Shown piece by piece: positions 37,737 through 61,949 of a stretch of 64,000 bases of DNA. Position numbers and translations under genes: made by a program. The stretch comes from a virus. The DNA is taken from the IMG/VR virus record IMGVR_UViG_3300029319_000005, positions 83,377-147,376 of that record. One strand, 5' to 3'. The first letter of the stretch is position 1, and each line of letters opens with the position of its first letter. Below the pieces are notes generated by a model. The model had not been told where the DNA came from and ran no database searches. It worked only from the letters and a program-made list of their open reading frames with translations.

Positions 37737-37737
<1 letters not shown>
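37710..37737 (-). promoter_or_regulatory. sigma70-type promoter TTGACT-N16-TATAAT
   Basis: Read directly; the ATG is 8 nt after the -10, so the transcript is likely leaderless. Confidence 0.7.
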
Positions 37738-37810
<73 letters not shown>

Positions 37811-37815
37811 ATCTA

Positions 37816-38433
37816 CTAGATTATTTCGTCTATGAGTCCATACTTAAGACAGGTTTTTGCATCCCACCAGAGATCATGTTTTAGGATCTCGCCAAGCTGC
37901 TTTTTAGGAATTTTGGTATTTTCCTCGTATATTTTTTTAATTGTTTTCATCAAAAGATCACAATTTTGTAAGTCATCTTTCATGTCTTCATACTTGCCCC
38001 ACATCCCGGAAGACAATTGGTGTATTAGCATAAAAGAATGTTCACGCATGTATCTCTTGTCGCCAACAACACTCATAAGAGTCGCTGCCGAGGCTGCACA
38101 TCCATCGATAATAGTATTTACAGGAACCTTGCAATTCTTGATATAGTCCACGCTGGAAAAGCCCGCAAAAACACTGCCACCGTAAGAATTAATGTGCAAG
38201 TTTATATGGATGTCCGGAACGTCCAATATATTAGCACTGTTGCTGTATCTGTTGGATAAGGTGACTATGTACTTATTTAAGTACAGATTGTTCGGTCGAG
38301 TTACTTCAGAATAGAAGTAAATATTGTTATTCTCCCACTCAATCTTGTTGTTTGGTCCAAACCCTGTTCCTTTACTTGTAGTAGTTGTGGTTTGGGGTTT
38401 ATTTGCTTTTGAAAACCAATAGTCTTCGTTCAA
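37816..38433 (-). CDS. clpP: ClpP-like protease subunit
   Basis: INSYGG, AASAA (catalytic Ser), LIHQ, DLWWDA..YGLIDEI. Confidence 0.85.
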   Translation of the reverse strand: MNEDYWFSKANKPQTTTTTSKGTGFGPNNKIEWENNNIYFYSEVTRPNNLYLNKYIVTLSNRYSNSANILDVPDIHINLHINSYGGSVFAGFSSVDYIKNCKVPVNTIIDGCAASAATLMSVVGDKRYMREHSFMLIHQLSSGMWGKYEDMKDDLQNCDLLMKTIKKIYEENTKIPKKQLGEILKHDLWWDAKTCLKYGLIDEII

Positions 38434-38499: not shown

Positions 38500-39390
38500 T
38501 TATCTAAAGTTGGCATAACCTATGTCAATAATAGCTATCTGTCCATTTTTTTCCATAATGTTTGAAGTTTTCAAATCATTAAAGATAATGCCATTGTCGT
38601 ATAAAAAAGTTAGTCCGGATGCAAGTTGGTTAAGATATAAACTTCTCGGGTCACTTAAAACTTTATTTGCGTGTTCTGTTGCCGACAGAGAGTCAGATAA
38701 AGTAGAATTATACATACCGACACTTAAGGTCCAAAATTCAGTAAAAAGTCTTTTTTGTAGTTCATCCCATCCTAAAGTATTAGAAATAGAATCAATTTTT
38801 GGTTCTATCGAGTCCCACTTATTGGAAGAAGGAGTTAAAACGATGGAATCCTTAGACAGGGCATTCAAAAATTGTTTTATAAGATTCTCTGCTTCAGATA
38901 AGTAAGATTCTTTCCACTGGTAGTAAAACTTATCTTTTTTTATTTTATGGAACATAAGCTCTGCTACATCAACCATTAATCTATTTGGATATTCTAAGTA
39001 AGAATATACAATGGCGTATCTCTGATTTTCCAAAGGTCTAAATTCTACGGGCAACTCTTGTGCTTTATAAATTGTGTAAACATTCGGGTGTTCTTTACCA
39101 GCTATCATTTTAGCGGCGCGATACTCTGTGTCATCCGACGTTATCTTCAACACTTTTTTATCAAACAAATAGGCAGAACCTTTTGATCCAGAACCAAGAA
39201 AATCAGGGTCTCCCTTTAGATCTCCCCATTTTTTAAATGATTCTATAGCCCTAGAAGTAAGAGGTATTCTTTTTTGTTCATCAGTTACTTTAGCTAAAGA
39301 ATCATTAATAAATCTTCTTCCGCTGTCTAATGTATTGATACGCTCGTCTAGACTTTTATATGCTCTCCATCCTGCAAAAATATCTCGCAT
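38500..39390 (-). CDS. protein-kinase-like protein with leader motif
   Basis: LGSGSKGSAY, VLKIT, DLKTSNIM, IIDIG; N-terminus WRAYKSLDE. Confidence 0.75.
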   Translation of the reverse strand: MRDIFAGWRAYKSLDERINTLDSGRRFINDSLAKVTDEQKRIPLTSRAIESFKKWGDLKGDPDFLGSGSKGSAYLFDKKVLKITSDDTEYRAAKMIAGKEHPNVYTIYKAQELPVEFRPLENQRYAIVYSYLEYPNRLMVDVAELMFHKIKKDKFYYQWKESYLSEAENLIKQFLNALSKDSIVLTPSSNKWDSIEPKIDSISNTLGWDELQKRLFTEFWTLSVGMYNSTLSDSLSATEHANKVLSDPRSLYLNQLASGLTFLYDNGIIFNDLKTSNIMEKNGQIAIIDIGYANFR

Positions 39391-39391
39391 G

Positions 39392-39976
39392 TTATTTCTC
39401 TATGTCTTCTAATAGACGAGATATCGCCCAGCGTTTATTACGAGAAAAATTCTCGTAATACTCTATTTCGGCAGCTTCTTTGAAATGAAATGGACGCCCC
39501 TTAACCCGCGACATAAATTCTGATTCTTCGCCCATCTTAATCCCACCAACATCCATTGTCTCACCAAAAGGGGGGTATTCATTGTCAGGCCTAGTTCCTA
39601 CAAGAAAAGCGTCGCTCGCGCCGCGAGGTATTAGAAGAACAGAGTCTTGCTCGTACTCAATGCCAAAATTTTCTATCGATTTAAAGAAATTAGGCTTATT
39701 ATGTTTGTTTACAACAAGCAGGCTCTCTTCTGTAACTTCTACTGCCTCTGGAGTTTCAAAGTTTTCAATAAATGAGCCCACAAGTTTAGCGACACCATAG
39801 CCTCTTTTGAGTAGACGAGCTTTTAATATTTGTCCTTTTTCTTTGTTCTCTTTTGCGGTATTTTCTGCACGATAAGCAGAAATGATAGCAGTGTCGTATT
39901 CTTTCATATGAGAGTAAAATCTAGATAAAGATGATTCTGCTAAAAATATTCTCCATTCATGTAGTATATCTTGCAT
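39392..39976 (-). CDS. SAM lyase (T3 SAMase-like) with leader motif
   Basis: ISAYR..EN..GSFIE..TEES..EYEQDSVL parallels T3 SAMase VSAFR..GCYRE..TEEK..EWEQDCVL (T3 sequence recalled from memory). Confidence 0.7.
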   Translation of the reverse strand: MQDILHEWRIFLAESSLSRFYSHMKEYDTAIISAYRAENTAKENKEKGQILKARLLKRGYGVAKLVGSFIENFETPEAVEVTEESLLVVNKHNKPNFFKSIENFGIEYEQDSVLLIPRGASDAFLVGTRPDNEYPPFGETMDVGGIKMGEESEFMSRVKGRPFHFKEAAEIEYYENFSRNKRWAISRLLEDIEK

Positions 39977-40047
39977 AATTTTTAGTGCCTCGCTAGTAAG
40001 TAGGGTTCGTCAAATAAAAGATATCTAATATATCTACTTACTATACT

Positions 40048-40665
40048 ATGAGCAAAGTCTCAACAAATAAGTCTAACATAGAAAAAGAAAAATTCAAGAA
40101 AAGATTTCAGAAAAGAACAATGTTAGAAATCTCCGCCTTAGTTCTTGAACTTGAAGAGGCTGAAGAGTTGGACATAGAGTACAGCAAAAAGTTTTCTGCG
40201 GACTTTAAGGATGAGTTAAAGTATAAAGCTGCTCTCTTAGACGAGATTGAAAATGCTCCTACAGAGGAGGAAAACATCTCAAAGTCTAAAAAGTCAGAGC
40301 CACATGATTTTATAAAAACTCTATACAGAGAAATAGCTAAAAAGACACATCCTGACAGATTTGGAGATGAGTACCAAGACCAATTTAAAACTGCCAGTGT
40401 TGCCTATGAAGAAGAGGAGTGGCTTACACTGCTAATGATAGCTGCCGATTTAAGTATTAACATGCCCCTCTTTGATCAAGATGCTCAACAAATAATAAGT
40501 AAAGAGATAGAACACAAAAGACGATTACTAGAAAAAAAGAAAGAGTCCCTAGTATGGGCCTGGGCTTCGTCGGATGACTGTCCAGAGACAAGGCGCAAAG
40601 CTAGGTCTTACATGGACATCGATGAAGATAAATTCCAAGAATTTTTAAAAAAAGACTCTATGTAG
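40048..40665 (+). CDS. J-domain-containing protein
   Basis: LYREIAKKTHPDR...FKTASVAYE. Confidence 0.75.
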   Translation: MSKVSTNKSNIEKEKFKKRFQKRTMLEISALVLELEEAEELDIEYSKKFSADFKDELKYKAALLDEIENAPTEEENISKSKKSEPHDFIKTLYREIAKKTHPDRFGDEYQDQFKTASVAYEEEEWLTLLMIAADLSINMPLFDQDAQQIISKEIEHKRRLLEKKKESLVWAWASSDDCPETRRKARSYMDIDEDKFQEFLKKDSM

Positions 40666-43677: not shown

Positions 43678-44217
43678 TTACCATGCCTTACAAGACCAAT
43701 ATCTTGCTTTCCATTTAGGCCCAGGGTTTTTGCAATTATGTCGAGCCCTGAAAGATTTTCTAGCCTTTGGATTAGATTTTCTAATTTTCATATTAGGATC
43801 ACCGAAGTTTACTTTAACAACGTTGCCTTTTGCATTCTTAACATAGACCTTAGATTTTTTAACATCACCCTTCATAGGCTTATTTAATGTTACTTTGCGA
43901 CCTTGGTATTCTGCTTCTTCTAAAACCTCGCCTTCTGCGAGCATCTCATAGTAGGCTTGCTCGTCTACATCTTCGGTAGTAACTTTCTTTTGTTGCTTGG
44001 CTTTTTTAACTTTGCTTTTAAGACGATTCATATTATATTTACCAATCTTAGACAGCTTCGACAAAGCCTGCACCGCTGATGGACTACTATGCCCAGCCAT
44101 TATGGCATCGATTGCTTGTTTCTCTAGTTCAGCTATGTTTGGAGAATCGTCTTCACTTAACAAGGCATTAAGTTCTTCTTTTACAATTTTTCTAATCTGT
44201 TCTTTTGTGATATTCAT
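43678..44217 (-). CDS. leader-tagged protein with basic C-terminal domain (FGDP..SFRARHNC..YWSC)
   Basis: MNITKEQIRKIVKEEL; basic domain follows VLEE. Confidence 0.65.
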   Translation of the reverse strand: MNITKEQIRKIVKEELNALLSEDDSPNIAELEKQAIDAIMAGHSSPSAVQALSKLSKIGKYNMNRLKSKVKKAKQQKKVTTEDVDEQAYYEMLAEGEVLEEAEYQGRKVTLNKPMKGDVKKSKVYVKNAKGNVVKVNFGDPNMKIRKSNPKARKSFRARHNCKNPGPKWKARYWSCKAW

Positions 44218-44339: not shown

Positions 44340-45368
44340 TTATCCTTTTTTTCCTGCTTTAGATTTTTTGCCAGATTTTTTTGAGGTCCCACAATCAGAT
44401 GGTGTTGGGCGACAATGTGGATACTTTGCTCTTTTTTCGCCCTCTTTTCTTCCGCACGATTTGCAAGTTTTCCTACCAGTCTTCTCGTCTTTTCTACAGG
44501 TATTGCAGTCCACCCAGCCTTTTGATTTGCCTTTACCACCTTGTCGGGAAAACCAACCGTGTAGACCGGATTCTTTTTCTTTAGAGTAGTCAGTTTTCTT
44601 TTTCTTTTCTTCTAGCTCGTTCTCTTGAACGGGCACACAATTGGGAACCATACGATCGCCCTTTTTCTTCATCCCAACTTGCTCATATCCCTGCCAGCAC
44701 GCTTCACCTAATACGTTTTGTATTTCTTCTTCTACTATCTTTCTAATATCTTCTTTTACACCTTTCCAAATCTTTCCTTGTCGGCATTTGACCACTGCTC
44801 CGGATGCATATGCAGATGGCCAAACATCATACTTACGCTTTGCTATTCTAGTGCAGCGGTCCCCCTTCTTCTTTTTCTTCTTTTTCTTCTTCTTGCGTTT
44901 TTTTTCTTCTAGCGAATCTTGATTTTTTTCTTGCCATTCCGCAGACTTATCATCTTCTGTAATTGGGCCGCCTTTCGCCCATGTCCGGCAAGACCTGGCG
45001 GAGTGGCATTTAAAGTGGTGCATCCAACAGTACCCAAGCTCACCATCATCATCGGATGTTTCTCCAGGCATGCAGTCTTTCATTCTTGGTGAGATATCAA
45101 ATGCTACACAATTGCCACATAATGATGCCTTAGCGGCCTTTTCATCGGTATTCCAATACTCAGCTATGTCTTTCCAGTAATCCCCCGGTTCATCGACGTT
45201 TAAAGGGCCATATTGAATATGATCTTCGTGGATAGCTGCATCGCGGTTCTTTGTGTTTAATTTTAGATCTTGAGTTGCCGGTGGGCAAACAAGCTCCGTT
45301 GCTGCTTTAACAACAACATCAACACTTTCTTTTAGATATCTTTGCCACTCTGTTAACAATTTTTTCAT
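44340..45368 (-). CDS. leader-tagged multi-module basic/Cys-rich protein
   Basis: MKKLLTEWQRYLKES; modules separated by LEE/LGE; internal IRKIVEEE. Confidence 0.7.
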   Translation of the reverse strand: MKKLLTEWQRYLKESVDVVVKAATELVCPPATQDLKLNTKNRDAAIHEDHIQYGPLNVDEPGDYWKDIAEYWNTDEKAAKASLCGNCVAFDISPRMKDCMPGETSDDDGELGYCWMHHFKCHSARSCRTWAKGGPITEDDKSAEWQEKNQDSLEEKKRKKKKKKKKKKGDRCTRIAKRKYDVWPSAYASGAVVKCRQGKIWKGVKEDIRKIVEEEIQNVLGEACWQGYEQVGMKKKGDRMVPNCVPVQENELEEKKKKTDYSKEKESGLHGWFSRQGGKGKSKGWVDCNTCRKDEKTGRKTCKSCGRKEGEKRAKYPHCRPTPSDCGTSKKSGKKSKAGKKG

Positions 45369-48612: not shown

Positions 48613-48651
48613 ACTATTAAATAGTATTTAAATCAATAAGATGACGTAAAA

Positions 48652-48961
48652 TGGTGGAGGTGTCGGGAGTCGAACCCGAGTCCTAAATATATCGAATAAA
48701 ACGTCGTTCACAAGGTTAGTTGGTTTTTGGCTCCAACAAGCACAAGACACAAATTCTTTACTATTGGGTAAGGCTAGTAAAGAAGCCTTTATTTGCAGCT
48801 TTGGTTAACAAGGTTGCTGCCACCCCGTGGTTATGCCGCTAGGGCGTAATCAAAAGCAACGTTATCGTTGGCAATTAAAGTTTTGAGTGTTTTTACTGTG
48901 CCGCACTCACACAGCCTTGCACATTCTATTTTCAATACCCAGTCGATACCAATTCACCCCC
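48652..48961 (-). ncRNA. ssrA: tmRNA, tag (A)ANDNVAFDYALAA
   Basis: 5' GGGGGTG pairs with 3' CACCTCC-ACCA, giving the G3.U Ala determinant; T arm TCGGG-TTCGACT-CCCGA; tag ORF at 48872-48831. Confidence 0.95.
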
Positions 48962-56097: not shown

Positions 56098-56502
56098 TTA
56101 TCCGATAAAAGACTTTTTAATGACATTCTTGTAGTTTCTAGAGATGTCATGATTGTCAATGTCGGATTTTGATATGAAGCGATACTCTGTGTGTTCGCCA
56201 CTTAATGATATTATACCGTCAGGTAGCGGGAGTTTATAATAAAATTTATGTGCGTTTTTTTGTACTAACTCGGCAACGCTGGTATCTATGTAAAGCCCAG
56301 TCTCTTCTTTAACTTCTCTTTTTAGTCCTTGCAACACTGCTTCTCCTTGGATAAGATGCCCACCAGGGAGATCCCATTTTGAATTTTTTGCTTTTTTTAA
56401 CATAAGAATTTTTTCATCAACGTATATAACTGCTTTAGCGACAATTTTCGTGTCGCCCTCTAACTCATTTAAAAAGTTGTTCCAACTTTTAAACTTTTTC
56501 AT
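56098..56502 (-). CDS. leader-tagged NUDIX hydrolase
   Basis: MKKFKSWNNFLNE; PGG..GE..LKREVKEETGL. Confidence 0.85.
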   Translation of the reverse strand: MKKFKSWNNFLNELEGDTKIVAKAVIYVDEKILMLKKAKNSKWDLPGGHLIQGEAVLQGLKREVKEETGLYIDTSVAELVQKNAHKFYYKLPLPDGIISLSGEHTEYRFISKSDIDNHDISRNYKNVIKKSFIG

Positions 56503-56507
56503 TGAAC

Positions 56508-56744
56508 TTACCTTTTTCGTGTAAAGGCCCAAGATAAGGCAAGTACAGCCAAAACTAAGTACAAACCAGACGAGCCAAGATCTCCTGACAGTTGTATCAT
56601 GTTCTCTAGTGTGTTTATAGGGAACATCAAGTGATCAGGGCCAATTAATACTTGTAGTGTAAAAAGAAGTGCTATTATTCCAATGCCTAGTTGAGTTAAC
56701 GACTTTAAAATGGTTGTGATTGAATCAATACGCTCAGGGTTCAT
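56508..56744 (-). CDS. two-TM membrane protein
   Basis: Two hydrophobic helices; GGAG SD. Confidence 0.55.
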   Translation of the reverse strand: MNPERIDSITTILKSLTQLGIGIIALLFTLQVLIGPDHLMFPINTLENMIQLSGDLGSSGLYLVLAVLALSWAFTRKR

Positions 56745-61747: not shown

Positions 61748-61949
61748 CTAGTGCATTCCTTAGTGTAAGTAGTGGCTCACCGTCCACCCAATCTATTGTC
61801 GCTCTTCCTTGTTCGTATAATTCTATAGCCATCTCTAGTTGTGCTACCATGTCGAACCATGCTATCCTTCGCGCCTCCTCGCGCATTCTTTTTAACTTTA
61901 CCAAAGTGAAGTCAATTAAATTTGTTGTATCATAAGCCATTTCATTCAT
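61728..61949 (-). CDS. hypothetical protein
   Basis: CTAATTA immediately upstream. Confidence 0.5.
   Translation of the reverse strand: MNEMAYDTTNLIDFTLVKLKRMREEARRIAWFDMVAQLEMAIELYEQGRATIDWVDGEPLLTLRNALDDNQEK

Follow-up and report, generated by a model that had tools for sequence, protein, structure and literature searches.

The open reading frame at positions 39392-39976 (-) encodes a T3-type SAM lyase, as established by family and fold, and sequence comparison identifies its first 14 residues as a modular leader shared with unrelated proteins. The leader has the register of the T4 capsid-targeting signal, and we consider packaging of this lyase in the phage head and its injection with the DNA to be probable. 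The source is an uncultured marine T4-like phage; the window, that is the whole stretch of 64,000 nucleotides analysed here, corresponds to the final 64 kb of a 147,376-bp IMG/VR record rated 81% complete. The complete chain of events, from leader-directed packaging through injection to SAM cleavage, is the account that we favour for the window lyase, and we hold it with moderate confidence. The idea of a SAM hydrolase that travels in the virion and enters with the DNA dates from a publication of 2023. What the present analysis adds is a leader of the W-type, together with evidence from relatives that leaders go with the phage.

The enzyme and its T3-type fold

A motif-by-motif similarity to the T3 SAMase had been noted in the preliminary description, with profile and structure comparison to the T3 and Svi3-3 lyases proposed as a check. 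The similarity was confirmed at the levels of family, profile and fold. The protein (194 amino acids, N-terminus MQDILHEWRIFLAE) matches the S-AdoMet_lyase family PF23780 with 52.9 bits (E 4.7e-14; residues 31-132 against model positions 2-99 of 133), the curated cut-off of this family being 28 bits. PF23780 is also present in 17 of 17 close homologues, and PHROGs 30877, 12788 and 2226 match the window lyase as well. Comparison of the family alignment with T3 gp0.3 using hhalign gave an E value of 1.6e-5 over residues 30-125 against 13-109, with the motifs SAFR, G-x-Y/F-x-E, TEE and EQD(S/C)VL paired. When the family profile was run against PDB sequences, the T3 SAM lyase was the sole match (E 0.014); a phmmer search of PDB sequences with the single window lyase returned no matches.

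An AlphaFold model was obtained from 17 homologues, with a mean pLDDT of 75 and a pLDDT of 39 for residues 1-14. The best six PDB matches found by Foldseek are all SAM lyases (8bb1_E, E 1.9e-4). Using VIA-align, residues 22-168 of the model were superimposed on residues 5-146 of the T3 SAM lyase chain 8bb1_E (Z 10.7, rmsd 3.6 A, 127 of 147 residues). The other SAM lyases gave Z values of 9.8 (7ock) and 6.6 (Svi3-3, 6zm9), and the best unrelated fold a value of 5.7. The SAM-lyase core, residues 22-168 (39473..39913, -), is defined by PF23780, by VIA-align and by the hhalign and profile alignments. It is followed by a C-terminal helix, residues 169-194, and the stop codon (39392..39472, -); this helix is seen in the secondary structure of the model and lies outside the T3 alignment.

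T3 gp0.3 (PDB 8BB1, 7OCK) and Svi3-3 (PDB 6ZM9) have in common with the window lyase the family PF23780, the PII-like fold and the Gly, Glu-x-Ser and Gln-Asp(Glu) residues, and presumably the reaction, in which SAM is converted to MTA and homoserine lactone. Unlike the T3 enzyme, to which it is about 16% identical, the window lyase carries an E-S-S-L-S-R segment, the C-terminal helix and a Phe in place of the active-site Tyr. Lyases of this kind form oligomers whose active sites lie between subunits. In Svi3-3, Gly56, Glu69 and Gln104 are the sole strictly conserved residues, and further contacts are made by Ser71, Tyr58 and Glu105 (PMC7877911). The residues G67, E83/S85 and Q110/D111 of the window lyase correspond to G56, E69/S71 and Q104/E105 of Svi3-3 and to G55, E67/E68 and Q94/D95 of T3; G67, E83-x-S85 and Q110-D111 are invariant in the 17-sequence alignment. 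The candidate substrate-binding residues are G67, F69, E83, S85, Q110 and D111. Although hhalign pairs E83 with T3 E67, the E-x-S/T pattern suggests a shift by one residue, with E83 equivalent to T3 E68. At the position of Tyr58, which stacks on the sulfonium in Svi3-3, the window lyase and its two nearest relatives have Phe69. Across 112 family members, this position is occupied by Tyr (90), Phe (14) or Trp (5) and is thus aromatic in 109. The Svi3-3 Y58F variant retains about 20% of its activity, a 5-fold drop, and its trimer is weakened (PMC7877911). SAM-lyase activity of the window protein is likely.

The replacement of Tyr by Phe at a sulfonium-contacting position, as well as the N-terminal motif and C-terminal helix of the subfamily that are missing from T3, could also point to a packaged protein having another substrate or another job. 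Such a protein would act on SAM-AMP or on another sulfonium or nucleotide signal, in an anti-CRISPR-like manner, or would serve mainly as an internal head protein, with little or no enzyme activity left. One phage enzyme with this fold does cleave SAM-AMP and leaves SAM intact (PMC12255297). The type III CRISPR SAM-AMP lyases and the phage AcrIIIB4 candidate (PDB 9GAD) belong to the same PII-like superfamily, with the catalytic-site Glu conserved (PMC12255297); these lyases are SAM-AMP-specific and not known to be virion-borne. However, the window model aligns with the Clostridium botulinum SAM-AMP lyase 9gad_A with a Z value of only 4.7, as compared to 10.7 with the T3 SAM lyase, and neither phmmer nor the family profile found a sequence match to a SAM-AMP lyase in PDB sequences, substrate preference not being readable from either result. 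Moreover, the SAM-binding Gly, Glu and Gln are conserved across the family, and the Tyr58 position is nearly always aromatic, as described above. Another substrate or function is unlikely in our view, and a packaged SAM lyase is retained as the preferred reading.

The leader and the head module

In the 152 ORFs, which total 47,263 residues, there are 14 copies of the pattern W-x-x-F/Y/L-L/V-x-E, 11 of them within the first 17 residues of an ORF. This N-terminal placement is far beyond chance. The 11 N-terminal copies, in which the W is mostly at position 8, are all found at 38.5-61.4 kb of the window. The bodies behind them are unrelated. They include the SAM lyase, a kinase-like protein, a NUDIX hydrolase (56098-56532, -; E 3.9e-12), proteins with weak ParB-like and nucleotidyltransferase-like matches and several proteins without family. 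In the longest ORF of the NUDIX hydrolase, the W-type leader begins at Met11; therefore, the true start is probably an internal ATG. In the lyase, the leader or propeptide covers residues 1-14 (39935..39976, -) and ends in L12-A13-E14. It leads into the E-S-S-L-S-R motif (39920..39937, -), which marks the junction of leader and enzyme and is the top conserved motif of the subfamily.

The T4 internal proteins IPII and IPIII start with MKTYQEFIAE (read from NC_000866). For encapsidation, the ten N-terminal residues of IPIII are enough; positions 4 and 7 serve targeting and positions 8 and 10 serve processing by gp21, which cuts after L/I-x-E (PMC9026906). W8, F11, L12 and E14 of the window leader match Y4, F7, I8 and E10 of IPII and IPIII in register (-6, -3, -2, 0), with four additional residues ahead of the T4-register part. 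The likeness extends to the T4 proteins IPI, IPII, IPIII and Alt as a group. These also have a short N-terminal propeptide with aromatic or hydrophobic residues at -6 and -3 and a terminal L/I-x-E, the leader is common to several unrelated cargoes, and a gp21-type protease is encoded by the phage. IPI and Alt exert their functions, anti-restriction and host takeover, in the cell that has just been infected. The window leader differs from that of T4 by its length (14 versus 10 residues), by Trp in place of Tyr and by an added hydrophobic K-K-L-L-like start. Its cargo, a metabolite-degrading enzyme, is also unlike the T4 internal proteins. There is a precedent for oligomeric enzymes, as beta-galactosidase and GFP fused to the T4 signal were packaged, ejected and active (PMC9026906).

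A Peptidase_S77 protease of the gp21 type (PF03420, E 3.6e-33) is encoded at G000:C1:45222-45863. It sits between the T4-type portal and the major head protein, within a T4-like portal-protease-scaffold-capsid module whose products match phrog_207 (protease), phrog_213 (portal) and phrog_138 (major head protein). Cleavage by this type of protease is predicted after E14 of the lyase. The leader that the preliminary description had placed on the lyase was thus recovered on 11 ORFs with unrelated bodies, in the T4 capsid-targeting register and in a phage encoding a gp21-type protease.

A second protease, ClpP-like, is encoded at 37816-38433 (-) and was considered as the leader-processing enzyme. 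It is not favoured, because the gp21-type protease lies in the head module and the leader ends in a gp21-type site. This ClpP-family gene has its own sigma-70-like extended -10 promoter, TGCTATAAT. Campylobacter phage IBB_35 and the Tara relative L019 have ClpP genes as well. A tRNA-Thr (TGT) gene at 37737-37810 (-) is located between the ClpP-like gene and an alpha/beta-hydrolase-like gene.

A separate question is whether the leader of the lyase is translated at all. If it were an annotation artefact, translation would start at Met24 and produce an enzyme without leader. The database entries P0003 and P0013 begin at the equivalent Met, and T3 gp0.3 likewise has an annotated in-frame internal start. 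However, the 23 codons preceding Met24 are open and conserved at the protein level in more than 40 relatives, and the contig of P0013 carries the leader in frame right behind an upstream stop codon. In addition, a Shine-Dalgarno-like GAGG (39988..39991, -) is read 11 nt 5′ of the first ATG, whereas none is found 5′ of Met24. We therefore regard a start at Met24 as highly improbable and keep the full-length frame. In the public gene calls for two relatives, P0003 and P0013, which begin at the Met24 equivalent, the leader is hidden; in L019 (4836-5426, +) it is in frame directly after the dUTPase stop.

The lyase gene is followed by that of a leader-tagged, short protein-kinase-like protein of 296 amino acids (38500..39390, -), which starts immediately past the lyase stop codon. 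The two genes probably form one operon. The kinase-like protein has its leader W at position 8 and matches Pkinase (E 2e-9) over residues 244-294 only. Its ORF ends right past the catalytic-loop region, so that the Pkinase match covers the last ~50 residues. A SAM lyase beside a kinase recalls T3 genes 0.3 and 0.7, as well as the virion proteins ORF6 and ORF14 of cyanophage S-CREM2.

The window phage also has a second type of leader, resembling M-K-L/I-T-K-S-K-L-K-x-I-I-K-E-E, on at least seven small ORFs, two of them inside the head module. The corresponding ORFs are at 43678, 51247, 61439, 62577 and 62879 (-) in the window and at 44579, 45913 and 57389 in G000:C1. The same type precedes SAM-lyase homologues in contigs L062, L081 and L095.

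Leader and enzyme in relatives and in virions

The family profile retrieved 2,827 representative proteins at E <= 0.001, and in nearly all of them the core starts with L/I/V-x-E-S-S/G-L-S-R. Among 166 relatives inspected, E-S-S-L-S-R is kept in nearly all, including internal copies in tandem fusions. The stretch ahead of the core varies. It can be of the W-type, of the 'LK-x-II-KEE' type also seen on small ORFs of the window phage, of the classical T4 type, or be made of just 4-5 residues. In the T4-like Paraglaciecola phage GD1, the homologue gp48 starts with MKTFSEFLGE, and at least 11 further GD1 ORFs start alike, among them the neighbours gp41-46, the head-module gp8, an RNA phosphodiesterase and a RelA/SpoT protein. 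In Campylobacter phage CP220, likewise T4-like, gp189 is the homologue; it shares an MKF-x-DY start with gp188 and gp187 next to it. For a Tara relative whose lyase is 56% identical to that of the window, the true start brings back a W-type leader, and the next gene has a W-type leader too. By these sequence comparisons, the enzyme behind the leader remains homologous and the type of leader varies with the phage, as a modular targeting signal predicts.

Clustering of leader-bearing genes was surveyed at 80 related viral loci. A second W-leader ORF was found within +/-10 kb at 8 of the 37 W-type loci and at none of the other 29; local clustering of the leader is therefore not general. A loose tblastn search (E 10) gained nothing but chance matches to Salmonella phage scaffold genes. 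In contig L082 (IMGVR_UViG_3300030102_003093), five ORFs with a near-identical MKLLLENWR-type leader are located less than 10 kb from a SAM-lyase homologue, the own N-terminus of which is unlike that leader.

Virion data are available for the cyanophage S-CREM2. In virions purified on CsCl, its ORF6, named 'SAM hydrolase (virion protein)', was identified (19 unique peptides, coverage 26%), and ORF12, ORF13, ORF15 and the kinase ORF14 were likewise present (PMC10665884, Table 3). The authors proposed that the enzyme enters with the DNA and protects it from restriction (PMC10665884, Front Microbiol 2023). ORF6 and the window lyase are related (BLASTP E 1e-15, 31% identity over 172 residues including E-S-S-L-S-R). 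We observed that the N-terminus of ORF6 is MKDFDSFLEE and that the virion-detected gp13 and kinase gp14 carry the same T4-type leader. A targeting sequence or protease site is not mentioned in the S-CREM2 paper (PMC10665884), and our literature search found no paper linking a SAM lyase to a capsid-targeting sequence. As for the window lyase, ORF6 belongs to a T4-like phage, has a leader whose final L-x-E runs into E-S-S-L-S-R and adjoins a leader-tagged kinase. It differs by a classical T4-type leader (~10 residues, F/F pair) and by its size of 414 amino acids with a long basic tail, whereas the window lyase has the longer W-type leader and no tail.

The same comparisons bear on the idea that the window protein is an ordinary cytoplasmic SAM lyase, like T3 gp0.3. 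The 14-mer would then serve another end, for instance as a helix for oligomerisation or regulation, as a cassette for translation initiation or as a handle for recombination that spreads between genes. The L-x-E-S junction persists in members with N-termini of 4-5 residues and in internal domain copies; with such conservation, it could be a part of the enzyme instead of, or besides, a cleavage site. This family-wide conservation of L-x-E-S-S-L-S-R would fit a cytoplasmic enzyme, and so would the location of a relative's gene in a replication/nucleotide cluster. In addition, the homologue of Campylobacter phage IBB_35 (gene 5-9) was absent from 38 virion proteins identified by gel-band MS in 2012. 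This absence is a weak negative, because the 2012 study also missed several known structural proteins. Several observations speak against a cytoplasmic enzyme. Homologous lyases carry different leader types in different phages, and the register is identical to the one defined by experiment for the T4 signal. In S-CREM2, both the homologue and the leader-tagged proteins encoded next to it were detected in virions, and the window phage encodes a gp21-type protease. Taken with this evidence, a purely cytoplasmic lyase appears quite unlikely, and we maintain that the window lyase is probably packaged.

The packaging account may be extended to the whole E-S-S-L-S-R subfamily, whose members number in the thousands across large phages, T4-like and Lak phages among them. 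These would form a head-packaged, protease-released class, in which the prohead protease would cut between E and S of the L-x-E-S junction and lineage-specific leaders (W-type, 'LK-x-II-KEE', classical T4) would be swappable. On this view, the W-type 14-mer would represent a novel class of capsid-targeting signals and drive an injected effector set of 11 proteins. We put this extension forward as tentative, its chances being below even.

Expression, proposed route and meaning

The preliminary description had pointed to a CTACTTA site ahead of the gene and had supposed that the enzyme is made late. The site is indeed present (39997..40003, -), promoter-like and 20 nt 5′ of the ATG. As a bare 7-mer, CTACTTA is not enriched, with 6 copies in the window versus ~10 expected. 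Among its 10 copies in the genome, three lie within 20 nt 5′ of starts, those of the lyase, of the divergent gene at 40048 (+) and of the gene at 61766. We therefore rejected CTACTTA as an enriched motif by itself and retained it solely as a variant, one mismatch away, of CTATTTA. The latter is the most enriched upstream 7-mer, found in 13 of 43 upstream regions (~30-fold), and 16 of its 26 coding-strand copies are within 40 nt of a start codon. Copies of CTATTTA stand ahead of the genes for sheath, tube and scaffold, and also ahead of cargo operons (48618, 51904, 63259). The T4 late-promoter word TATAAATA was tried as the upstream motif of the window phage and rejected.

No sigma-70-like site was found in 39977-40047. 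Together with the CTACTTA site, this fits co-expression of the lyase with the head genes, as far as upstream motifs can indicate. Late-only expression is not conserved, however, because in the 56%-identical Tara relative the lyase start is located directly behind the dUTPase stop, in a replication/nucleotide cluster and without a CTATTTA-type motif. For the window gene, late synthesis may be suggested by its CTATTTA-variant site and missing sigma-70-like promoter, and the suggestion does not carry over to this relative. Phage DNA methyltransferases (PF02086, PF01555), which could conflict with a late SAM lyase, were not found in the 81%-complete record, a result that carries no weight either way.

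Some further features of the upstream regions were observed. The dominant upstream motif, (a)ACTATTTA(a/t), is a late-promoter candidate unlike T4 TATAAATA, with examples at 377, 33673, 48618, 51904, 57826 and 63259 (-). At 48618 it ends 5 nt before the ATG, which would imply a nearly leaderless mRNA. A tmRNA gene (48652-48961, -; Rfam RF00023, 125.9 bits, E 1.5e-49; ARAGORN tag peptide ANDNVAFDYALAA) is directly upstream of the CTATTTA site heading a five-gene leader-cargo operon. The 10-mer CTACTTACTA occurs twice, inverted, in the 71-bp divergent intergenic region, at 39994-40003 (-) and 40034-40043 (+). The first of these is directed towards the lyase and the second towards a DnaJ-like ORF on the + strand (40048-40665), ending 4 nt before its ATG.

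For the window lyase, we infer packaging, cleavage, ejection, the substrate, the benefit and protection from type I restriction or BREX, along the following route. The protein would consist of two modules. Residues 1-14 would be this phage's version of the T4 capsid-targeting sequence, probably an amphipathic helix, in which W8 and F11 occupy the two prohead-core targeting positions of T4 IPIII and the L-A-E end provides a gp21-type site. The second module, from about residue 15 to residue 194, would be the T3-type SAM lyase. The precursor would be made during head assembly, its leader would bind the scaffolding core, and it would thereby become enclosed in the prohead. The gp21-like protease of the phage would then cut the leader off after E14, and the mature lyase would remain in the DNA-filled head and be ejected with the DNA. 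In the new cell, the lyase would re-form its oligomer and convert SAM to methylthioadenosine and homoserine lactone. The loss of SAM would weaken type I/III restriction and BREX ahead of any phage gene expression. The leader may possibly also keep the lyase sequestered or less active in the producing cell.

The T3 SAMase counters SAM-dependent type I restriction and BREX. In T3, gp0.3 is expressed before all other genes once the phage DNA is inside, and it lacks a targeting leader, whereas the window lyase has a leader of 14 residues. If the proposed route is correct, SAM depletion would begin at DNA entry and close the gap during which T3-like phages transcribe their SAMase, and a pre-made enzyme could beat SAM-dependent restriction and BREX. 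The combination of a T4-type leader with a gp21 site would also offer a testable explanation of how the SAM hydrolase described in 2023 comes to be in cyanophage virions. More generally, the data suggest T4-like phages with swappable leader-cargo cassettes. Should this be true, the leaders would be usable to load chosen proteins into non-coliphage heads, and they would predict which 'hypothetical' genes encode injected effectors.
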